Positions 23,483 through 57,000 of a stretch of 64,000 nucleotides of DNA are shown one piece after another. Made by a program: the position numbers and the translations under genes. The notes under the pieces were generated by a model. That model ran no database searches. It saw nothing but the letters and a program-made list of their open reading frames with translations, and had not been told where the DNA came from. The DNA lies in contig JBAZNA010000001.1 in assembly GCA_041649475.1 (NCBI GenBank), forward strand, positions 686,594 through 750,593. Reading direction: 5' to 3'. Position 1 is the first letter of the stretch. Each line of letters begins with the position of its first letter. This DNA is from Patescibacteria group bacterium (GTDB taxonomy: Bacteria > Patescibacteriota > Patescibacteriia > Magasanikbacterales > GWA2-37-8).

Positions 23483-24352
23483 TTACAAGATCATGCTTTC
23501 TCTGTCGTTTTCAGCCGATTTCAGGATATAAACATCGCTTTTTCCGTAGGCATCCTCGCCCACAAACTCCGCCTCTTTGTCTATAATCGCCTGCAGGGGT
23601 TTGCAAGCCGGACAGCCGTCGTCGCCGTTCGGGCATTTAAACCGGTTCAGTTGTCTGGCCAGTTTCATCTGTTTGGCGATTTCCAAAATTTTGTTTTGCG
23701 CTTCGTTTAGGTCGGGCAGGGTTTTTTCGGTTAAATTATCGCTGGAAAATAAGTACCAATAACTGGCTTTGGTCACTTTTCGCTTCTGGCAATTGTGCAC
23801 GAGCAAATGGTAAATCGGCAGTTGTAAAGAGTCGGTCTCTTCCTCGTTGCGCCCGGTTTTAAAATCAATAATGTGAACGCTGTCGGTGTCGGGCAAATAT
23901 TCCAGCCAGTCAATTTTCCCGCACAAAATAATATTTTCTTCTTCAGAAAGCCAATACGACGGCAGATCCTGCTGGATTTTTACGGAAAGCGTGGCGAGCG
24001 GGCCCGGACTCCTCATCACCCGGCGAAGCATTTCCTCTCCGCGCTGTTTATAAACATATTCAACCTCGTCGCTTTGGAAGCCGCCTTTTTTGCCGCGAAT
24101 TTTTTCCCAAGCCGTGTCCAGCTTTTCTATTAGCGACTTTGCGAAGCGCTGTTCAGTCGGCAAAACCGATAATGATTCCAAAACCTCATGCACGGCCTGG
24201 CCCAGCGCCAGCGCCGGAGCCATTATTTTTATTTTATGTTTTGTCACCGGATCTTTATAAACATTTTTCAAATAATACGCTTTCGGACAGCGCAAAAAAT
24301 CACTGATTGAAGTGTGTGAAACCCAAACTGCGGTGTATCTGTCCGGAGGCAT
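23483..24352 (-). CDS. PD-(D/E)XK nuclease with Fe-S cluster cysteines (Cas4-like/RecB-family)
   Basis: N-terminal Cys (CPKAYY) plus C-terminal CPNGDDGCPAC cluster. Core motif GKIDWLE...HIIDFKTGR (D...D/E-x-K). No CRISPR array in the window. Confidence 0.55.
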   Translation of the reverse strand: MPPDRYTAVWVSHTSISDFLRCPKAYYLKNVYKDPVTKHKIKIMAPALALGQAVHEVLESLSVLPTEQRFAKSLIEKLDTAWEKIRGKKGGFQSDEVEYVYKQRGEEMLRRVMRSPGPLATLSVKIQQDLPSYWLSEEENIILCGKIDWLEYLPDTDSVHIIDFKTGRNEEETDSLQLPIYHLLVHNCQKRKVTKASYWYLFSSDNLTEKTLPDLNEAQNKILEIAKQMKLARQLNRFKCPNGDDGCPACKPLQAIIDKEAEFVGEDAYGKSDVYILKSAENDRESMIL

Positions 24353-26884: not shown

Positions 26885-27691
26885 TCACAATATAATAGTT
26901 ACTTTTTCATAAAGTTTTGGTAAACAATTTTGTCTCATTCTAAATTTAGTACCATGATTGTGGCCACTTCTTGCATCAAAATCCACCAAAATGTCCCCGT
27001 CTTCCAACGCTTTTAAAAAGCCTTCAAAGCTGAATTTTTGCAACATCATCACTTTAGAATAGTGATAATATTCTTTTTTGCGTTCTATTTTAACATCCGC
27101 TTGTACATAAAAGCAGTTTAGTAATTTTGTTCCGGCTTTATGTTCAAGATCATCAAAACCCCAGTATGGTTGCGGATCTAATTCACCCAAACCAACACGC
27201 TTTTTAACTGATTGCAGCCATACCTTGTGTCTTGGGTCAACACTTTTTGCTTCAAAAGAAATCAATATCTTTTTTTCTCGTCGGTCAATGACTACCATAA
27301 AACCACGGTCGCTTCGTGATTTGCCATGAATAGTTTGTCTAAAACTCATTTCGTTTTTAGGATATAATTTGTCGGCCTCATCATGAGCCCAGCCGTATTT
27401 TGGTAATAATACCTGTGGCACAAAACGAACTGCGCGTGGTGATGGTTCAGTGTGAAAAAGCGTTGTAAGCGATGTTGAATTTAATCGCTGCGCTTTTAAT
27501 TCCCATTCGGCCGCATTCGGAATTGGTAAATTATTTTCTTTAATGCCTAGCAGGTCTTCTAGCGTATTACCAATTCCGCCATGGTTACCTTTGCGGGCAT
27601 TTGGTATCCAACCCATCCCAGCTATTCGTTTAAATTCCTCAATCAAAATTGGTTTAGTAAAAAGATTTAATGTTTGTTTTGCACGTGGCAT
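26885..27691 (-). CDS. Putative Type II restriction endonuclease (PD-(D/E)XK; MvaI/BcnI-like by context)
   Basis: 268 aa immediately downstream of an m4C/m6A beta-class MTase with a 2-nt gap. Candidate PD-(D/E)XK core VVIDRREKKILISFEAKS. The family assignment is inferred, not verified. Confidence 0.5.
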   Translation of the reverse strand: MPRAKQTLNLFTKPILIEEFKRIAGMGWIPNARKGNHGGIGNTLEDLLGIKENNLPIPNAAEWELKAQRLNSTSLTTLFHTEPSPRAVRFVPQVLLPKYGWAHDEADKLYPKNEMSFRQTIHGKSRSDRGFMVVIDRREKKILISFEAKSVDPRHKVWLQSVKKRVGLGELDPQPYWGFDDLEHKAGTKLLNCFYVQADVKIERKKEYYHYSKVMMLQKFSFEGFLKALEDGDILVDFDARSGHNHGTKFRMRQNCLPKLYEKVTIIL

Positions 27692-27693
27692 AT

Positions 27694-28467
27694 TTAGAAG
27701 TTTAATTTTATTTGGGATTTATGTTTTTTTATACGTTCTTTTGCCATAGCACAATATTGTGGTGATATATCAATTCCGATGTAATTTCTGTTAAAGTTTA
27801 TAGCGGATATTGCGGTTGTGCCCGAACCCATAAAAGGGTCCAAAATAACTTTTGCACTGGTAGATGTGACAATTCTGTCAATCAAATCAACTGGAAAAGC
27901 GGCGGGGTGTTCATTTTTCATCTCTTGGGTAAATTCCCATACATCGCCGTACCCATTCGCTTTGGGCACTAACTTAAATTTTGGTTTAGCAATTAAATAA
28001 ATCACTTCATATGTTGGCACAAAATAACCAGCATTAAAATTAAAACCACCTTTCCGTCTCCAAATGATTATTTGCCGAACTGGAAAACCGGAAATAATAT
28101 CTTGTCTGTCCTGTAATTTTCCGGCTTGTACTCGCCATTTGTGATTATAAAAAATTGCACCGTCTTCCGGGATGATCCTCATCATCTCATTTAGGCAATC
28201 TCGCTGCCACTTAACATAATCTTCATGTGGCATGCAATCATTGTGATGACTATATCCTTTTTGTAGGGCCGCATTTGCCCATTTGCCACCTCGCCCGTCT
28301 TTCATGCCATTACCAGTTGAATTTTTTAAATTATACGGGGGCGATGTTACAACTAAATCAACACTTCCGTCAGGAATTTGCTTTAGTATCTGAACAGTGT
28401 CGCCACAAATAATTTTATTAACAAAACTATCGAGTTGCTTCATAAACCCTATATTATAAACTAGCAA
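27694..28467 (-). CDS. DNA methyltransferase, beta-class (N4-cytosine or N6-adenine), SPPY type
   Basis: Motif IV TSPPY precedes the C-terminal motif I DPFMGSGTT. This is the permuted beta-class order typical of m4C MTases such as M.MvaI/M.BcnI. Confidence 0.8.
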   Translation of the reverse strand: MLVYNIGFMKQLDSFVNKIICGDTVQILKQIPDGSVDLVVTSPPYNLKNSTGNGMKDGRGGKWANAALQKGYSHHNDCMPHEDYVKWQRDCLNEMMRIIPEDGAIFYNHKWRVQAGKLQDRQDIISGFPVRQIIIWRRKGGFNFNAGYFVPTYEVIYLIAKPKFKLVPKANGYGDVWEFTQEMKNEHPAAFPVDLIDRIVTSTSAKVILDPFMGSGTTAISAINFNRNYIGIDISPQYCAMAKERIKKHKSQIKLNF

Positions 28468-37509: not shown

Positions 37510-38088
37510 CTATAACTTTTTTAAACTGACTTCATAAACAACCTGCTCCAGTTTATTTAACGCCTGCTTGGCCTGATCAAATTTTTGGCGGTTATAACCG
37601 GTCAAATCCATATCAACCAGCTCGCCGATAATTTCTTCAGCCACAGCATAACATTTTTTTACTTCATCAAATTTTCTGGCAGTGGCCGATTTGATGGCAT
37701 ACCGCAAAAGTTCGCCCGGCACATCGCATAAACCGCCGATAAAAGTGTCGCAATCAATTTCCAAATTTTTTATTTTCCCCAGGGTCTTGCCGGCCAAAAA
37801 TTGTTCAAACAGCGAGGCCTCGGTGTATTCTTCCAAAGCCGCGCGGTATGAACCCTCGTCAAAAAGATCTTCATCTTCTTTATATTTTTTATTTAACTCA
37901 AGCAAAATCTGACCGGCAGAAGCCAAGACCTCGGCTCCGTCTTTATCATCGCGCTGAAAGGCAAAAATCGCTTTTTTAGACAGGTGCTGGGCGTCTCCGG
38001 CGGCCTTAATAACCTCACGTCTTTTTTGCGCATAACTTAACAAATCCTGGCGTATCTCGTTTAGATATTTTTTATCCAACATACACAA
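37510..38088 (-). CDS. Hypothetical helical protein (192 aa)
   Basis: No confidently recognised domain; possibly translin/DUF47-like helical bundle. Confidence 0.3.
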   Translation of the reverse strand: MCMLDKKYLNEIRQDLLSYAQKRREVIKAAGDAQHLSKKAIFAFQRDDKDGAEVLASAGQILLELNKKYKEDEDLFDEGSYRAALEEYTEASLFEQFLAGKTLGKIKNLEIDCDTFIGGLCDVPGELLRYAIKSATARKFDEVKKCYAVAEEIIGELVDMDLTGYNRQKFDQAKQALNKLEQVVYEVSLKKL

Positions 38089-38168: not shown

Positions 38169-38241
<73 letters not shown>

Positions 38242-38294
38242 CAAATTTAAAATCGCCGCGGAAGCGGTGGTTTTTTATTTTATCAATCTGGGTA

Positions 38295-38323
38295 TTGACC
38301 GCTTACTTACCTTATACTAAAAT
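38295..38323 (+). promoter_or_regulatory. Sigma-70-like promoter TTGACC-17-TAAAAT
   Basis: Near-consensus hexamers with 17-nt spacing, immediately upstream of a GC-rich non-coding stretch. Confidence 0.5.
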
Positions 38324-38325
38324 CA

Positions 38326-38600
38326 AATCAGACCGCGAAAGGGAACTGCAGGTGAAACAAACCAGCAACCTGTAGACCCGCACTTTCTCCCCAGAGAAAG
38401 GTTTAGCGGCCTCGTAGCGCAACACGGATGCGGCCTTGGGAACGACCGATAACGAGTTTAAACCTCGTCGGTCAGAAGAACGAGATCGTCCGCCGCAGCC
38501 CAAAAGAAGACGGATGAGCCAAGGAGGAGGAATGCGCCCAAGGCCCGAGCAACACAGCATGCAGGTGCTGGTAACTGCATGCTTCTTTTAATTCTTGTTT
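38326..38600 (+). ncRNA. Candidate ~270-nt GC-rich non-coding transcript (promoter-to-terminator unit), identity unknown
   Basis: Bounded by the promoter at 38295-38323 and the hairpin gcatgcag...ctgcatgc followed by a T-rich run at 38557-38600. No plus-strand ORF above ~26 aa. GC-rich and purine-rich. It does not match the tmRNA, RNase P or SRP features I can recall. Confidence 0.25.
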
Positions 38601-38672
38601 TTTTCCATCGCCTGTGTTACCTTGTCTGTAAGCTTGGTAATCAACTTGCCAAAAACGAAAGGGGGTATCAAA

Positions 38673-39248
38673 ATGCCACGTGCCATCATCAGTGTGTACG
38701 ACAAGACCCGGCTCCTGGCCTTCGTACAGGGTCTCACCAGTCTCAACTGGGAGATCATCTCCACCGGCGGCACCGCCAAGCATCTGCGGGAAGCGGGCTT
38801 CCCAATTCTGGATGTGTCGCAGGTCACCGGATTCCCGGAGTGCCTGGAGGGACGGCTCAAGACCCTGCACCCCAAGATCCTCGGCGGCATCCTGGCCAAG
38901 GGCACGCCGGAGCACAAGGCGACCCTCAAGAAGCTGGAAATCGAGATGGTGGACATGGTCGTGGTCAACCTCTACCCGTTTGAGGAGACCGTGGCCAAGC
39001 CGGACACGACCTGGGACCAGGCCATCGAGCAGATTGACATCGGCGGCCCCACCATGATCCGCGCCGCGGCCAAGAACCACAACCGCGTGACCGTGATCGT
39101 GGACCCGAACGACTACATGCTGGTGGTCAACGAGCTCGAGTTGCACGGCGAAGTCCGTCCTCATCTCCGCCAGTCCCTGGCGGCCAAGGTCTTCCGCAAG
39201 ACCGCGGAGTACGACAAGGCCATCGCGGACTACTTCAACAGGTCCTGA
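38673..39248 (+). CDS. PurH N-terminal domain only: IMP cyclohydrolase (MGS-like) domain protein, GC-rich, possibly a truncated purH
   Basis: MPRAIISVYDKTRLLAFVQGL...STGGTAKHLREAGFPILDVSQVTGFPECLEGRLKTLHPKILGGIL...VVVNLYPF matches the PurH IMPCH domain. It ends where the AICAR transformylase domain would begin. GC is far above the flanks. RBS AAAGGGGG upstream. Confidence 0.7.
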   Translation: MPRAIISVYDKTRLLAFVQGLTSLNWEIISTGGTAKHLREAGFPILDVSQVTGFPECLEGRLKTLHPKILGGILAKGTPEHKATLKKLEIEMVDMVVVNLYPFEETVAKPDTTWDQAIEQIDIGGPTMIRAAAKNHNRVTVIVDPNDYMLVVNELELHGEVRPHLRQSLAAKVFRKTAEYDKAIADYFNRS

Positions 39249-39349
39249 CAGACCCCAGCTGATCCGTTCTTTCCACTTGAGGAGACAACAGCGCAGCCGA
39301 TTCCCCATCGGCTCGCCTCAATCTAATGAAAATCAAGATTTGGTTTTTA

Positions 39350-51062: not shown

Positions 51063-52562
51063 TTAGAGTTTTTCCCAATCCTGGGCCTGGGCCAGATATT
51101 TATCCTTTATTTCGGCAAAATATTTTTTGGCCGCTTTGTAATCATTGGGAAGCACGCCGTCTAAAATCGCTTCTTCAATCGCGGTTTTAATCTTGCCGAC
51201 CGTGGGCCCGGGTTTTAGTCCGGATAATTTCATAATTTCATCGCCTCTAAGCGGTGACTGGAAGGCGCGTAATTTGTCTTTTTCAATGACCTCGGCAATT
51301 CTTTTTTCCAAACGGTCGTAATTGTGCAGGCGTTTTTCCTTTTTGAGCGGATTGCCGGTGGTAATATCACTGCGGCCTAAGATCAATAAATCATCAAGTT
51401 CGTCGCCCAAGCTGACAATCAGCCGGCGCACCGCGCTGTCGGTTATCCCCTCGTCCATCAAACTGATCGGCTGTTGATGCCATCTGATCAGTTTGGCCAG
51501 ATAATCCGTATCGTTTTTGGAAAAACGCAAACGCTGGCCGATTTTATAGACCAATTTTTTGCCGACATGCTCGTGCTGATAAAAAGTCCAGCCGATTTTG
51601 GCAACAAATTCTTTGGTTTGCGGCTTGCCGATGTCATGCAAAAGCCCGGCCAATCTTAACATTGTTTTATCGGATCTTTCGGCGATATTATCAACCACCT
51701 TAAAGGTGTGCACCAAATTATTTTTATGCTGGTGGCCAAAAATTTCTTCCACTCCATCTAATTTTACAACTTCCGGCAAAACAAAATCCAATAAATGCGT
51801 TTGAAACATCATACTTAAGCCGATTGAAGGCAAGGGACAAGCGAGCAGTTTAAACAATTCTTCGGCAATCCGCTCGGCCGAAATTATTTTTAATCTTTCC
51901 TTATTTTCATATATTGACTTGAGGGTCTTGGGATCAATCGCGAATTGCAATTGGCTGGCAAACCGCACCGCGCGCATCATCCGCAAAGGATCATCGCTGA
52001 AGGTTTTATCCGGCGAGAGCGGCGTGCGCAAAATTTTGTTTTTTATATCATTTTGCCCGTCAAACAGATCAATGATTTCTTTTTTTACGACGGTCAGGGT
52101 CGGCGGTTTCGCGCCCGCAAATACAGAAACCGGCACGGCCATGGCATTAACCGTAAAATCGCGCCTGGACAAATCATCCGCCAAGGTGGCTGTCTCAACT
52201 TTCGGCTTTCTGGATTTGGCATCATATTTTTCGCTTCTGGCTCCGGCAAATTCCAAAACTATTTGTTCTTCGCCTTCGCCGATGACATACCTGGCCGTAT
52301 CAAAATCCGGAAATTCAACCAAACTCCCCGCTTCCTTCATGGCTTTGTCAAAGTCCTTGGCAAAAGCCAAACCGCTCCCTGCCACCACAAAGTCAATATC
52401 CTTTTTTTCATTTTTGCCCAGCAAGAAATCACGCACAAATCCGCCCACAATATATATCGGGGTTTTATTCTTTTTGGAGACAGTGTTGATTTTTTTTAAT
52501 ATCGCCGAAATTGACATAGCCCGTTTAAATCTTTTTATCGCGCCCCATTCTGTTTTTGGCAA
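51063..52562 (-). CDS. cca: CCA-adding tRNA nucleotidyltransferase with HD domain (probable start at 52517)
   Basis: PolyA-polymerase head (IYIVGGFVRDFLLG...DIDFVV) and HD motif LLHDIGKP. The ORF-track start overlaps pilT by 38 nt; an internal Met (M16) avoids the overlap. Confidence 0.8.
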   Translation of the reverse strand: MPKTEWGAIKRFKRAMSISAILKKINTVSKKNKTPIYIVGGFVRDFLLGKNEKKDIDFVVAGSGLAFAKDFDKAMKEAGSLVEFPDFDTARYVIGEGEEQIVLEFAGARSEKYDAKSRKPKVETATLADDLSRRDFTVNAMAVPVSVFAGAKPPTLTVVKKEIIDLFDGQNDIKNKILRTPLSPDKTFSDDPLRMMRAVRFASQLQFAIDPKTLKSIYENKERLKIISAERIAEELFKLLACPLPSIGLSMMFQTHLLDFVLPEVVKLDGVEEIFGHQHKNNLVHTFKVVDNIAERSDKTMLRLAGLLHDIGKPQTKEFVAKIGWTFYQHEHVGKKLVYKIGQRLRFSKNDTDYLAKLIRWHQQPISLMDEGITDSAVRRLIVSLGDELDDLLILGRSDITTGNPLKKEKRLHNYDRLEKRIAEVIEKDKLRAFQSPLRGDEIMKLSGLKPGPTVGKIKTAIEEAILDGVLPNDYKAAKKYFAEIKDKYLAQAQDWEKL

Positions 52563-53559
52563 CCTCTTCCGTCACCCAGCCCTCTTTGAGCAAATCTTTA
52601 ATTGAGTTTTCCATTGTGACCATGCCTTCCTTGGCTCCGGTCTGAATGGCTGATTTTATCTGATTGATTTCATTGCCGCGGATCAAATTGGCTATGGCCG
52701 GATTATTTATCAAGATTTCTCTGGCCGGCACTCTGCCCCCGTCTTTTGACGGCAAAAGCTGTTGGGCGACCACGGCGCGCAACACCGAAGATAATTGGAT
52801 CAAAACTTGTTTTTGTTTTGAGCCCTCAAAAACATCAACAATACGTTCAACCGCTTCGGCCGCGCTCGGGGTGTGCAGGGTGGAAAAAACCAAATGACCG
52901 GTTTCGGCGGCAGTGAGCACGGTGGCAATGGTTTCCGGATCGCGCATTTCACCGACATATATCACATTCGGATCCTGGCGCAAAACATATTTTAAGGCAT
53001 TGGCAAATGAATCCGTGTCTGTGCCCACATTTCTTTGCTCAATCAAACTTTTTTTATCTTTAAAAAGAAACTCAATCGGGTCTTCCACGGTGATGATATG
53101 CGCCCGGCGGGTTTTGTTTATCTCCTCAATCATGGAGGCAATGGTGGTTGATTTTCCGCAGCCGGTCGGACCGGTAACCAGAATCAAACCATCCAAATAT
53201 TTTGGCATTTCCGCCAAAACCGGTTCAAAGCGCAAGTCCTTGGGGCTAGGAATGTCTGATGGAATCACCCTGGCAGACAAACCGATATTGTCCACCTGTT
53301 GATGCAAATTAACGCGGAAACGGACTTTATCTACTTCATAGCTGAAATCCAGCTCTTTGGTCTTCTCATACTTGTCCTGTTGTTCTTTGCTTAAAATATC
53401 TTTTATAGCCGTCAGCAAATCCTTGTTATTTAACTGCTTGTCATCTATTTCTTTTAACTCACCCTCTATTCTGATCATTGGCAACTCACCGCCGATTAAA
53501 TGCAAATCAGAAGCGTCTTTTTTGATCGCTTCTTTGAAATAACTCTGTAAATTTAGCAT
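52525..53559 (-). CDS. pilT: Type IV pilus retraction ATPase PilT
   Basis: 344 aa with Walker A GPTGCGKSTT, Asp box and His box in the typical PilT arrangement. Confidence 0.85.
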   Translation of the reverse strand: MLNLQSYFKEAIKKDASDLHLIGGELPMIRIEGELKEIDDKQLNNKDLLTAIKDILSKEQQDKYEKTKELDFSYEVDKVRFRVNLHQQVDNIGLSARVIPSDIPSPKDLRFEPVLAEMPKYLDGLILVTGPTGCGKSTTIASMIEEINKTRRAHIITVEDPIEFLFKDKKSLIEQRNVGTDTDSFANALKYVLRQDPNVIYVGEMRDPETIATVLTAAETGHLVFSTLHTPSAAEAVERIVDVFEGSKQKQVLIQLSSVLRAVVAQQLLPSKDGGRVPAREILINNPAIANLIRGNEINQIKSAIQTGAKEGMVTMENSIKDLLKEGWVTEEVAKNRMGRDKKI

Positions 53560-53673
53560 ATATTTACTAAAATTTGATTAAAAACTTGTCTAAATATTAT
53601 ATACCTAAAAAAAGCGAAAAGCAACCGCCTTTGCTTGAAAAAATAAGCAGGATGATATATAATCGTTTCATTA

Positions 53674-53746
53674 GCGGGCTGTAGCGAAGTTGGTATCGCG
53701 CATCGTTCGGGACGATGAGGCCGCGGGTTCAAGTCCCGCCAGCCCG
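53674..53746 (+). tRNA. tRNA-Pro (anticodon CGG), CCA not encoded
   Basis: Acceptor CGGGCTG/CAGCCCG, D-arm GCGA-AGTTGGTA-TCGC, anticodon stem CATCG/CGATG with loop UUCGGGA, T-arm GCGGG-TTCAAGT-CCCGC. Confidence 0.85.
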
Positions 53747-53765
53747 ACGGGAAGGAGGCAAAGCA

Positions 53766-54029
53766 ATGCGTATTCCTTGTCCACGACCGCCCAGGTCGAT
53801 TCAAGATGAGGTTAAGGTTCATGAAGCAATCAGGGACGCCAAGGCCAATTCCAGGCTGATCTTCGTCGTTGAAGTCAATCCGAAAACGCACGAAGTGTCG
53901 GCTAACGCGTACTGGCCGGCTGCCCTGCCCGGATGGGAAAAGGAATATTCCCTTCTCGGGGAGCTCAAGAAGATGGCCGTTTCGGTCTGGCGCAAGGTCA
54001 GCAGGAAGCAAAACAATGCGCAAGCATAG
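53766..54029 (+). CDS. Hypothetical protein (87 aa) in GC-rich cassette
   Basis: Strong RBS GGAAGGAGG 8 nt upstream of the ATG, directly abutting the tRNA-Pro 3' end. GC-rich; no domain recognised. Confidence 0.4.
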   Translation: MRIPCPRPPRSIQDEVKVHEAIRDAKANSRLIFVVEVNPKTHEVSANAYWPAALPGWEKEYSLLGELKKMAVSVWRKVSRKQNNAQA

Positions 54030-54116
54030 CGGAGGGGTGTTCGCGAACTCACCAAAAAAGTTCGCTTTTTTGTTTAAAAAATGAGCAGTTTATAGAGATG
54101 CTCCGCTCTTTTCTGG

Positions 54117-54716
54117 TTACTTCTTCGTGGGCTTCTGGCCCACACGCATGTCCTTCACATCCGCCTCCACTCCGACCTCCAGGGTATTCGGCTTGACCGA
54201 GAAGATCTCCTCCTGTTTGATCTTCACCCCAGGCACAGTGACGGCGACAGCCGGTTCTTCCAGCATCGCCTCCTTGTTTGGGTCTTCAACGATTCTGACA
54301 AAGCGCTTGAGGCCCATCTTCTTGAGCGCCTTGATCACCGCCTTCTTGTCGCGCAGGTGCACCGAAGGCGGATTGAGACGCCATCCGAAACTGCCGGTTG
54401 GCACCTGGATGGTCTTGGTCTTGCCGCCCTCGGTCAGCGTCTCGCGGTTCGCGTCGGCGAAGATGAAGAGACCCCGTACCAGGCCGGCAATGGTCCGGTT
54501 GTGAGACGAGGCGAAGGCCATCGCCTTCTTCTGCAAGACCGCTACCCCGTCATTTAAGACATTCTCGATCGAGTTGATCTCCCTCTGCTCCGCGGCGATG
54601 CGAGTCAGTATGTTAGCCGCCTCAACCAGGTTTTCCGGAATATATACTTCATAGTCCGGCTTAGCAGGCATCTTCACCTGATGAGGTGCTTTATCCACGA
54701 TCTTTTTCTTGGCCAT
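54117..54716 (-). CDS. gam: Phage Mu Gam-like host-nuclease inhibitor / DNA-end binding protein
   Basis: ETLTEGGKTKTIQVPTGSFGWRLNPPSVHLRDKKAVIKALKKMGLKRFVRIVEDPNKEAMLEEP aligns closely, by memory, with Mu Gam (DELTNGGKVKTANLVTGDVSWRVRPPSVSIRG...LGLQRFIRTKQEINKEAILLEP). GC-rich; RBS GGAGGG. Confidence 0.7.
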   Translation of the reverse strand: MAKKKIVDKAPHQVKMPAKPDYEVYIPENLVEAANILTRIAAEQREINSIENVLNDGVAVLQKKAMAFASSHNRTIAGLVRGLFIFADANRETLTEGGKTKTIQVPTGSFGWRLNPPSVHLRDKKAVIKALKKMGLKRFVRIVEDPNKEAMLEEPAVAVTVPGVKIKQEEIFSVKPNTLEVGVEADVKDMRVGQKPTKK

Positions 54717-54828
54717 GATTGCCCTCCATGGGCATAATCTAGCTTATCCGCGAAATTTTAGCAAGCTGCCGACCAACAAACAAAAAAGCCCTTATGGGGC
54801 CATTTTATTTTAAAAATCAGACCAATAT

Positions 54829-55257
54829 CTAAGTTAAACCGAGAGCAGGTTTAACTTGTTTCATATCTTCCTCTAAAACTTCAACTCTGCCTTCAATAAT
54901 TCGCATATCGTGCGTAGCAATAGTGAGCTCCTGGTCTTTCTTTTCAGTTATTTGAACTAATTTATCAAGAGTAATTGAAATTTTGTTCAAATCTGTTTTC
55001 GTCGCCATATCAGCCTCAATCCGATCCAAACGCTCATCGTGTTCTAAAAATTTTATTGCTAAAAAATCAAATCTTTTATCAACCTGGTCAAATCTTTTAT
55101 CAACCTGGTCAAATCTTTTATCGTGAGCTTCTAGTTTTTTATCAATTTGGTCAAACCTTTTGTCAATTTGGTCAAACTTCTTATCGTGGGCACTGAATTT
55201 TTGTGTGATGTTTTCCATAGTTTTTATATTATACTGTGATAATAAAATTGGTGTCAA
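54829..55257 (-). CDS. Coiled-coil protein with tandem heptad DKRFDQ(I/V) repeats
   Basis: Six consecutive 7-aa repeats DKRFDQI/DKKLEAH/DKRFDQV..., encoded by 21-bp DNA tandem repeats. Confidence 0.5.
   Translation of the reverse strand: MTPILLSQYNIKTMENITQKFSAHDKKFDQIDKRFDQIDKKLEAHDKRFDQVDKRFDQVDKRFDFLAIKFLEHDERLDRIEADMATKTDLNKISITLDKLVQITEKKDQELTIATHDMRIIEGRVEVLEEDMKQVKPALGLT
55066..55192. repeat. 21-bp tandem repeats (about 6 copies, atcaacctggtcaaatctttt consensus)
   Basis: Directly visible: tcaacctggtcaaatcttttatcaacctggtcaaatctttta ... tcaatttggtcaaacctttt ... Confidence 0.7.
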
Positions 55258-55260
55258 TGC

Positions 55261-57000
55261 TCACTGATAACTCCTCAAAAACTCCACACTCATTTTTTGT
55301 TCTTTTAAAGCCAGGCCGATTGAACTCTCAATTCTGATAATATATTTTTCCAAGGGCTCCAAATTTTCTAAAATATCCAAACTTAGCAAAGCAGTACGGG
55401 ATTTGTTTGTGTAGGACAAAGCCAACTCCCCGGCTCGCGGCAAGGTTTTAAACCAAAAAGTTTTTTCCAATTCGGGCATATCTTTTTCCAAATCAATCTC
55501 GCCCCGCGCCAAACCAAAATCCTCTAAAAGCATAGCCACCACCGTGCTGATGTGACCCCTCTCCAAGTCCTCTTTCCAATCATGCAAGTCGTCGTTCATC
55601 TGCATGGGGATTAAATAATTTTTAAAATAAGAAATTAAATTTCTTGTTTCAGCCGAGTCCAACGGATAACCAAGCAAATACATTATCACCACACAGCCCA
55701 AAATGTGAGCCGAAGGCGGTTCGTATTTACAGGTGTAGTCGCCGAAATCCGACATAGCCGCCGGCAAAAATACTTTCGCGCCCTCGCGCTTCAAACGGCA
55801 ATGCCTAGTTTCCCAAGTGTTAGCGCCGTCAAGTTTGTCCATCAGCTCTCGGAAAAATTTTGTCATGCCCGATTCGGGCGGAAGGATGCCATTAAACAAA
55901 TAGGTAAACTCACGCGCATATAAATTCGCGGCCGGCAAAATTTCCGGCATAGCTTCTTCGTCTTCATCCCAAAAATTATCGTAAATGATAAAAGCGGTCC
56001 AAAAAAATGTGTTGGCGAGACCTAAAACCGCGATCAAGCCATCTGAAAAAATCTGGCCTTTCTCTCCCAATGCCTGCCGGAAATAATACGGCATCAATGA
56101 CATTTGTTTGTCATAATTACCAGCAACTGTCCTCTGGATTTCCCGCAAAGCGATTGTTTTCAAATCCGAGTTCAAAAATGAAAAGCGCTCTTCAGCTGTG
56201 TTAATAATTTTAACCAGCATTTTTTGCTCCTCAATTTCAGCATTTTTTAAATCCGAATCCGCATTAAGGACTGTATTTTTTATTTTACTAAGCGCCTCCA
56301 CACAAAACGCCGAAGCCAAAGCCGGACCGGGCGGCGCGGTTTCCAAAAATTTTATTTCTTCCGCAAGTTGACTCAAAGGACAACCCAAATTTATGGCTGC
56401 TATAACCGCCAAAGCCGTATTGCACAAATCATTTTTTAAAAAACTTTTATTTTCCAAAATATATGCCAACAACTTTTGCCGACTGTCGCCTTTATAAAAT
56501 TTGGAAATAAAATAAATAACAAAATACGGAGACGAATAAAGCGAAGATTTAAAATTGCCGGTCGCAATCGCCACTTCAATTAAATTATTTAAAGACGCCA
56601 ACTCCACACCCTGTAGAGATAAAAAATAGGCAATGTTCACATTTACACCCAAATCAATATTATTTTGCACACCGCTTTCCGGCACAAAAGTGTAATACGG
56701 CCCGCCTTCTTCGGATTCCAAAGAAGTAAGATGTTTTAAAATTTTGGCCAGAGCCGCACCGTCTATCAATTCCGGATCATATTCCGTTAAAGCCGACAAA
56801 ACACAAAAATTTATGCCGGCAATATTTCCAAACAGCCAATTTTCATCTTTCCGCATTAACAAATTCTTGACTGCCCTATATCTGATCATACTGGCGTCTT
56901 CATCATCAATTTTATTCAAACAAAAAATAATTAACGCCAAATTCAAAAAATTATCGCCCGTTGGCTGAAATTTTTTGAGTACACCAAAATGTTTATACAT
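55261..57000 (-). CDS. Hypothetical 579-aa protein with Asp-rich motifs (possible terpene-synthase-like alpha-helical fold)
   Basis: Mostly helical. Motifs KIDDEDA, IIYDNFWDEDEE and NDDLHDWKEDLE resemble DxDD / DDxxD / NSE-DTE metal-binding motifs. The assignment is weak. Confidence 0.35.
   Translation of the reverse strand: MYKHFGVLKKFQPTGDNFLNLALIIFCLNKIDDEDASMIRYRAVKNLLMRKDENWLFGNIAGINFCVLSALTEYDPELIDGAALAKILKHLTSLESEEGGPYYTFVPESGVQNNIDLGVNVNIAYFLSLQGVELASLNNLIEVAIATGNFKSSLYSSPYFVIYFISKFYKGDSRQKLLAYILENKSFLKNDLCNTALAVIAAINLGCPLSQLAEEIKFLETAPPGPALASAFCVEALSKIKNTVLNADSDLKNAEIEEQKMLVKIINTAEERFSFLNSDLKTIALREIQRTVAGNYDKQMSLMPYYFRQALGEKGQIFSDGLIAVLGLANTFFWTAFIIYDNFWDEDEEAMPEILPAANLYAREFTYLFNGILPPESGMTKFFRELMDKLDGANTWETRHCRLKREGAKVFLPAAMSDFGDYTCKYEPPSAHILGCVVIMYLLGYPLDSAETRNLISYFKNYLIPMQMNDDLHDWKEDLERGHISTVVAMLLEDFGLARGEIDLEKDMPELEKTFWFKTLPRAGELALSYTNKSRTALLSLDILENLEPLEKYIIRIESSIGLALKEQKMSVEFLRSYQ

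Follow-up and report, generated by a model that had tools for sequence, protein, structure and literature searches.

A solitary Gam-family gene, paired with a small orphan gene in a GC-rich islet behind tRNA-Pro, in a Patescibacteria genome

The stretch of DNA analysed here (the window) comprises 64,000 nucleotides of the metagenome-assembled genome of a Patescibacteria group bacterium (assembly GCA_041649475.1, contig JBAZNA010000001.1). In it lies a short GC-rich islet, bordered on the left by the 3' end of a tRNA-Pro gene and on the right by the terminator of a host gene, which carries two convergent genes: gam, encoding a 199-aa protein related to the Gam protein of phage Mu, and an open reading frame (ORF) of 87 aa, here called orf87 (Table 1). 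The GC content of the islet is 54.5% versus 43.1% for the window, and that of its flanks falls to 31-38%. The GC content at third codon positions (GC3) reaches 0.76 in gam (z=4.0 against 62 window genes, rank 2 among 65 window genes) and 0.64 in orf87 (z=2.3 on the same basis, rank 4), in agreement with an initial annotation of this DNA, which had described both genes as GC-rich relative to the host.

That annotation had also recognized a Gam core in the 199-aa protein and suggested a comparison with the Pfam profile PF07352. The profile matches the protein at E=9.4e-33 and 113.7 bits, far above chance (cut-off 28.3), from position 3 to position 149 of its 149 positions, and the PHROG 491 family, 'Mu Gam-like end protection', matches it at E=8.9e-38. 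BLASTP aligns it to Mu gp10 (Gam) with 38% identity over 160 aa (E=2e-35), which covers nearly the whole of the Mu protein (residues 15-174), while tblastn finds Mu, D108 and SfMu with E of about 5e-26. An AlphaFold model built with 26 homologues (predicted local distance difference test, pLDDT, of 88.7) shows a helix of 60 residues and, after it, a beta-rich core, and the protein would thus share with Mu Gam the predicted architecture of long N-terminal helix and beta-rich core as well as the size class. Unlike Mu Gam, it lies outside any phage, carries about 24 more residues at the N-terminus and a short basic tail at the C-terminus, and belongs to a separate clade. The putative Gam of Desulfovibrio vulgaris (PDB 2p2u), to our knowledge the only solved Gam structure, is found by sequence at E=8e-9, with a low identity of about 20% in structural alignment; a Foldseek search of the PDB with the Gam model gave no significant match and did not recover 2p2u. 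The label of the window's protein at NCBI (100% identity, on a contig of 963,177 bp) is 'host-nuclease inhibitor Gam family protein'. Judged from its sequence, the protein is a bona fide, already annotated member of a well-known family, in a context that is unusual and not unique.

This context is cellular. A scan with Pfam, which covered each of the 65 ORFs of 120 aa or more in the 64 kb, detected no integrase, transposase, capsid, portal or terminase, so that the absence of an integrase, a capsid or any other phage gene nearby, claimed from the first reading, was confirmed. The genes recognized by Pfam are those of a cell (PilT, CCA-adding enzyme, ABC transporters, two-component system, glycosyltransferases, DnaG, RpoD, ValRS, MurG and others), and the scan found nothing of the early region of a Mu-like or other phage, as a setting for gam, in the window. 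Neither was pseudogene debris found around the islet. A search for att-like direct repeats of the tRNA-Pro 3' end, which had been proposed as a check, was negative: with up to 3 mismatches allowed, the only match of the 3' 22-mer in the window was tRNA-Pro itself, and the comparison of the 3' half of tRNA-Pro with the islet and its right flank, both in the window and in contigs of the sister lineage described below, gave nothing above chance. The best local alignment of att type within 1.5 kb scores 14, against a mean of 16.6 for random pieces of the window, and a repeat finder run on positions 53500-55400 returned only chance-level pairs around the islet, the sole real repeat family of that region being a 21-nt tandem repeat within the neighbouring coiled-coil gene. 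Compared with a prophage or island at tRNA-Pro, therefore, the adjacency to the tRNA and the deviant composition are present and the integrase and att repeat are absent. The islet resembles known tRNA-associated genomic islets in abutting the 3' end of the tRNA, in its foreign composition and in having a variable gene in the slot next to the tRNA, and differs from them in having no integrase or flanking direct repeats and in its length of only about 1 kb.

The same locus could be followed in a sister lineage, represented in the Logan assemblies of at least seven runs (SRR25490519-551). There the order is PilT, tRNA-Pro, HAD-type hydrolase, 86-aa ORF, Gam, coiled-coil protein and a homologue of the 579-aa protein that follows in the window, so that the pair formed by orf87 and gam, whose synteny the initial annotation had left to be checked, is kept at the same place. 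At the DNA level the window and the sister share 91% identity up to the last base of tRNA-Pro, and this host-side homology stops exactly at position 53748, the left border of the islet; the similarity begins again, at 80-85%, with the ribosome-binding site of the small ORF and crosses the right border. The additional 840 nt of the sister between tRNA-Pro and the small ORF correspond to a HAD-IIB hydrolase gene with a host-like GC content of 37.7%, compared with 57% for the two islet genes of the sister. This gene was either inserted in the sister or deleted in the window, and its junctions have only the trinucleotide GAC in common. The initial annotation had described orf87 as directly fused to tRNA-Pro: the close abutment is real, with the ATG about 18-19 nt past the end of the tRNA, but it is no translational fusion, and it is lineage-specific, because the sister has the HAD gene in between.

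The sharp GC step at both borders would also be expected if a GC-rich fragment of another organism had been misjoined into the genome bin. This assembly chimera is effectively refuted, and with it the artefact considered when the locus was first described, since the independent sister assemblies span both borders, with the same junctions, the same neighbours and 80-91% nucleotide identity, and since the islet genes have a synonymous divergence (dS) like that of pilT beside them. The dS values between window and sister are 0.53 for pilT, 0.42 for orf87 and 0.51 for gam, and the corresponding ratios of nonsynonymous to synonymous divergence (dN/dS) are 0.03, 0.14-0.15 and 0.30. The similarity of the three dS values implies that the gene pair was already present in the common ancestor, and the comparison indicates that orf87 and gam are vertically inherited and constrained.

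Is this Gam a singular case? A single-protein search with Gam gave no close relatives in GTDB species genomes or in IMG/VR, and an alignment search in GTDB found one further genome only (L013), while a profile search revealed many related Gams with 38-51% identity. We inspected twelve genomic contexts, including those of the window and the sister lineage. Gam is a lone gene amid housekeeping genes in ten of them (Table 1); the other two (L026 and L028) belong to prophages that are clearly Mu-like, having MuA/MuB, GemA, Mor and terminase. The description of the window's Gam as stand-alone and unusual is thus correct in its first part and has to be qualified in its second, as it is no one-off: nine other related contexts are solitary too. 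A tRNA or transfer-messenger RNA (tmRNA) gene lies within 1.2 kb of Gam in six of the eight contexts where this could be assessed, and within about 400 nt in four of the eight; at roughly one tRNA per 10 kb the chance of such proximity is ~1e-3, a rough post-hoc estimate. In L013 the Gam gene is followed by NlpC/P60 and C39-like peptidase genes and then by tRNA-Asp, forming a three-gene block between tRNAs. Loci L022 (8113-10534) and L023 (9755-10534) encode an identical Gam (P0028), and one of them has a gene of 545 aa between tRNA-Ala and gam. As this difference mirrors that of the HAD gene between window and sister, the slot just past the tRNA looks like a recurrent point of insertion or deletion.

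Neighbour-joining analysis places the solitary Gams in a clade of about 42 proteins, most of them on short contigs, from which Mu Gam and the two prophage Gams are excluded in 98 of 100 bootstraps. The tree held nine context-checked Gams that define the clade, and a tenth, P0014, also falls inside. None of the 24 best viral Gams of IMG/VR, which reach at most 44% identity, is placed within it. Gam orthologues held to derive from prophages have been described in the chromosomes of Haemophilus influenzae, Neisseria meningitidis, E. coli O157 and Salmonella (PMC1378119). The window's Gam is like these in being chromosomal and of phage-derived origin, and Salmonella examples appear among its weaker matches; unlike them, and unlike the Gams of L026 and L028, which sit in recognisable Mu-like prophages, it has no phage genes around it and has been conserved, as one unit, in different lineages.

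These data can be used to weigh the possibility that the islet is an inert leftover, that is, the last piece of a prophage or integrative element at tRNA-Pro, which plays no role in the cell and is being lost. The islet abuts a tRNA gene, the classical site of integration, the composition of the islet is foreign and has not been ameliorated, and bacterial Gam orthologues are generally regarded as prophage-derived (PMC1378119). But the two lineages, at a dS of about 0.5 from each other, have both genes in intact form and under constraint (dN/dS of 0.15 and 0.30), which argues against a decaying remnant; moreover, there is no integrase, att repeat or pseudogene debris, and in nine other contexts a related Gam is likewise kept intact and on its own. 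We therefore consider an inert leftover unlikely.

The second gene of the islet has a very different distribution. Its product, labelled 'hypothetical protein WC526_03735' at NCBI (100% identity), is basic (isoelectric point 9.8), and it has one credible homologue only, P0007 of the sister lineage, with 88% identity. A word-indexed search returned only the protein itself and its sister counterpart, and an exhaustive phmmer search of 1.84 billion representative proteins returned the sister protein and P0008. The latter was rejected as a homologue: it is an 820-aa Big_13 Ig-repeat protein, with 23% identity, whose score adds up the contributions of 8 near-identical repeats and which represents a repeat-inflated chance match. 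There was no match in Pfam, PHROGs, PADLOC, NCBIfam, PDB sequences, the phage collection, IMG/VR or JGI metagenome contigs. A structure prediction, which had been suggested at the outset, was made with AF2 on the two available sequences and gives an alpha-beta-beta-alpha arrangement at low confidence (pLDDT 52.6). Substitutions nevertheless indicate that orf87 is a real coding gene. Twenty-one of the 32 differences between window and sister fall at third codon positions of the plus-strand frame, and this is taken as the coding frame because the open antisense frame gives a dN/dS of 2.6.

We considered whether orf87 and Gam form a two-protein module, in which orf87 would regulate, load or antagonise Gam, or in which the pair would be a mobile anti-restriction or anti-defence cassette. 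The two genes are adjacent, alike in being GC-rich and kept together in both lineages, orf87 is constrained, and the window holds a type II restriction-modification system elsewhere. Against this, no homologue of orf87 was found beside any other clade Gam examined, the small ORFs next to the solitary Gams of L022-24, L027 and L029 being unrelated, mostly hydrophobic membrane proteins, and among 1.8 billion representative proteins the sister's is the only homologue of orf87. The genes are convergent and do not form an operon, neither of them matches the PADLOC defence models at E<=0.1, and Mu Gam is not known to bind other proteins (PMC3809393). Such a module is quite unlikely in our judgement.

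The arrangement of signals around the two genes is given in Table 1. The strong ribosome-binding site attributed to orf87 in the initial annotation was found just before its ATG (GGAAGGAGG), and the equivalent place in the sister lineage is occupied by AAGGAGGAAATGCCATG. The stop codons of orf87 and gam are 87 nt apart, and the gap carries a terminator-like hairpin for each strand. The one past gam is part of a fold (54040-54120, minus strand) of -19.8 kcal/mol with z=-2.4; the one past orf87 is weak (z=-0.3 on the plus strand), and the same stem makes 8 bp on the minus strand. On its other side, gam is set apart from host transcription by the terminator of the upstream host gene, at the right border of the islet. 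The promoter-like site of gam matches the consensus at 8 of 12 positions, under the threshold of the scan, whereas the site upstream of tRNA-Pro appears to be the sole plausible promoter for both the tRNA and the ORF behind it. Because the 18 nt between tRNA-Pro and orf87 leave no space for a promoter, orf87 is probably co-transcribed with tRNA-Pro. In Rfam, tRNA-Pro is the only match of the islet. The tRNA-Pro gene does not encode its CCA, its end (...CCCGA) being followed by CGG (53745-53751), and a gene for a CCA-adding enzyme (51063-52562) is located 1.1 kb upstream on the opposite strand.

Table 1. Positions of the islet and its features in the window (upper rows), and gene contexts of the solitary Gams at other loci (lower rows)
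Feature or locus	Positions	Strand	Basis or context
Promoter-like site TTGAAA-17-TATAAT	53635..53663	+	consensus scan, 11/12 matches; 11 nt upstream of tRNA-Pro
tRNA-Pro(CGG)	53675-53748	+	ARAGORN; Rfam RF00005 gives 53675-53747 at 68.9 bits
GC-rich islet, ~1.04 kb, two convergent genes	53749..54786	.	tRNA-Pro 3' end on the left, host-gene terminator on the right
Shine-Dalgarno GGAAGGAGG of orf87	53750..53758	+	read from sequence; 7 nt upstream of ATG
orf87, 87 aa, WC526_03735 (NCBI)	53766..54029, ATG to stop	+	ORF list
Hairpin GCGAAC...GTTCGC then T-run, terminator-like, 3' of orf87	54041..54069	+	sequence and fold
Hairpin then AUUUUUU, terminator-like, directly past gam stop	54076..54114	-	fold
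gam, 199 aa	54117..54716	-	ORF list; convergent with orf87
Shine-Dalgarno GGAGGG of gam	54722..54727	-	sequence; 5 nt upstream of ATG
Weak promoter-like site of gam, TTGCTA-17-TAGATT	54736..54764	-	by eye, inferred
Terminator of upstream host coiled-coil gene, GGCCCCATAAGGGCT then T-run	54787..54801	-	terminator scan; fold z=-3.2
L013	9881-11736		Gam, 49% identity, 47 nt past tRNA-Met; 56% GC genome; near PheST
L016-18			DnaK/DnaJ, tRNA-Lys, Gam, PyrF
L019-21			SmpB, tmRNA, methyltransferase, Gam, IF3/L20
L022-24			tRNA-Ala, Gam, MscS
L025			GreA ... Gam ... PolX
L027			DnaX/DsbB, Gam
L029			Gam ... L9, CTP synthase
L111			tRNA-Cys/Leu, Gam, MscS

Several neighbouring features of the window were recorded in the same analysis. 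The coiled-coil protein next to gam (54829-55257, minus strand) has the GC content of the host and contains five tandem 21-nt repeats (7 aa, DKRFDQV-like) at 55046-55192. Its sister homologue has only 91 aa and is 67% identical, from which we conclude that the gene is fast-evolving and variable in length. It is followed by a gene for a 579-aa protein (55261-57000, minus strand), for which Pfam and NCBIfam gave no match and PADLOC no credible one. The sister retains this protein (86% identity over 312 aligned residues, dN/dS 0.09), which is a constrained, uncharacterised protein of the host. A second GC-rich islet with a single gene (38243-39300) begins directly behind tRNA-Lys(UUU) (38169-38242). 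Its gene (38673-39248, plus strand), which encodes a 191-aa stand-alone protein like the N-terminal part of PurH (MGS / IMP cyclohydrolase-like), is the most deviant of the window (62% GC, GC3 of 0.89, z=5.7) and is preceded by a GC-rich leader of 430 nt that matches no Rfam family. In the islet behind tRNA-Lys, as in the Gam islet, a foreign gene follows a tRNA. A type II restriction-modification pair (26885-28467, minus strand), formed by an endonuclease of the MvaI/BcnI family and an N4/N6 DNA methylase, is located in AT-rich DNA (31-37% GC) that is likely another acquired segment; the pair is a source of double-strand ends in the cell. Finally, the window encodes a protein of the Translin family (37510-38088, minus strand; PF01997, E=2e-17), a family uncommon in bacteria, and a stand-alone PD-(D/E)XK nuclease (23483-24352, minus strand; PF12705).

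How might such a locus have arisen, and what could its Gam do? The explanation we favour is that a foreign, GC-rich segment of ~1 kb, with its two convergent genes, arrived downstream of tRNA-Pro in an ancestor of the lineage and would then have been inherited vertically and kept by purifying selection, other phage genes having been lost or never having been present. Mu Gam binds the ends of double-stranded DNA and blocks RecBCD, as has been established experimentally (PMC3809393; PMC1378119). By homology with Mu Gam, the protein described here would form a Ku-like homodimer on such ends and block exonucleases of the RecBCD/AddAB type. The gam gene would be expressed from its own ribosome-binding site and weak promoter-like site and end at its terminator-like hairpin, while the orf87 message would be freed from the shared transcript by 3' processing of the tRNA; the orf87 product may be a small nucleic-acid-binding partner of Gam or a passenger acquired with it, which is our most likely guess. 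We thus infer dimeric end binding, nuclease protection, a benefit to the host and co-transcription of orf87 with the tRNA. The anti-defence or DNA-repair role suggested in the initial annotation would be of the same kind, and PADLOC gave no link to a known defence system.

The relationship of Gam to Ku leads to a further possibility, that Gam acts as a minimal end-joining factor, recruiting a ligase as bacterial Ku does to reseal double-strand breaks, and does more than shield the ends. Gam is considered an orthologue of Ku (PMC1378119, PMC3809393), and the window's Gam is like the bacterial Ku/LigD system in belonging to a superfamily of ring-like proteins that bind the ends of double-stranded DNA and in being a chromosomal host gene (PMC1378119). 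In addition, it is a solitary chromosomal gene under selection in reduced genomes, and at one related locus a PolX-type polymerase is encoded 6 kb from Gam. Unlike Ku, however, it does not match the Ku family (PF02735), the Pfam scan of the 64-kb window revealed neither LigD nor another ATP-dependent ligase that could be its partner, none of our results supports end joining, and Mu Gam has been reported to take no part in repair reactions (PMC3809393). We regard this possibility as highly improbable.

Instead, we think it reasonably probable that the window encodes a domesticated or retained Gam that serves the cell, by protecting ends at breaks or the ends of linear DNA, and a greater probability should be given to the biochemical end-binding activity itself than to this cellular role. 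The cellular role is favoured because Gam stands alone, is under constraint and groups in a non-viral clade. Several points weigh against it. Constitutive expression of Mu Gam in E. coli phenocopies the loss of recB and lowers viability (PMC3809393); since it cripples RecBCD-dependent repair, a host that keeps gam must either regulate it or not depend on such nucleases. Although the window and the sister have diverged by a dS of about 0.5, the GC content of the islet is still far from that of the host, which suggests that the islet arrived fairly recently and makes a transient passenger conceivable. Further, the tree is a simple neighbour-joining tree whose members were collected with a profile of the clade itself, the contexts inspected represent only 10 of about 42 clade members, and only two members are named by their source as Patescibacteria. 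A broader proposal, that a phage Gam was domesticated as a minimal Ku-like end binder of the host in Patescibacteria, and perhaps in other ultra-small bacteria as well, forming a clade of lone, tRNA-adjacent genes that could profit from the transcription of the tRNA, with a new 87-aa partner in the present case, is accordingly put forward as a tentative possibility, about which we have more doubt than confidence.

Gam is usually seen as a weapon of phages against host nucleases, and in the laboratory it serves as a reporter of double-strand breaks and as an additive to base editors. In the literature that could be searched we found no paper linking Gam with Patescibacteria and no description of lone, tRNA-adjacent Gams. 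The less ordinary part of the result is the evidence that this Gam and its relatives are maintained by selection as lone genes of the chromosome in very small genomes, in many cases following a tRNA gene. If a lone Gam is indeed selected in genomes of ~1 Mb with pared-down repair, this would suggest that Gam serves the cell, with possible roles in the protection of ends at breaks, in the tolerance of restriction damage or in the handling of linear DNA, and compact natural variants of Gam would be on offer. Finally, the recurrent position of single foreign genes directly after a tRNA gives a hint of the way in which streamlined genomes may acquire new genes and have them expressed.

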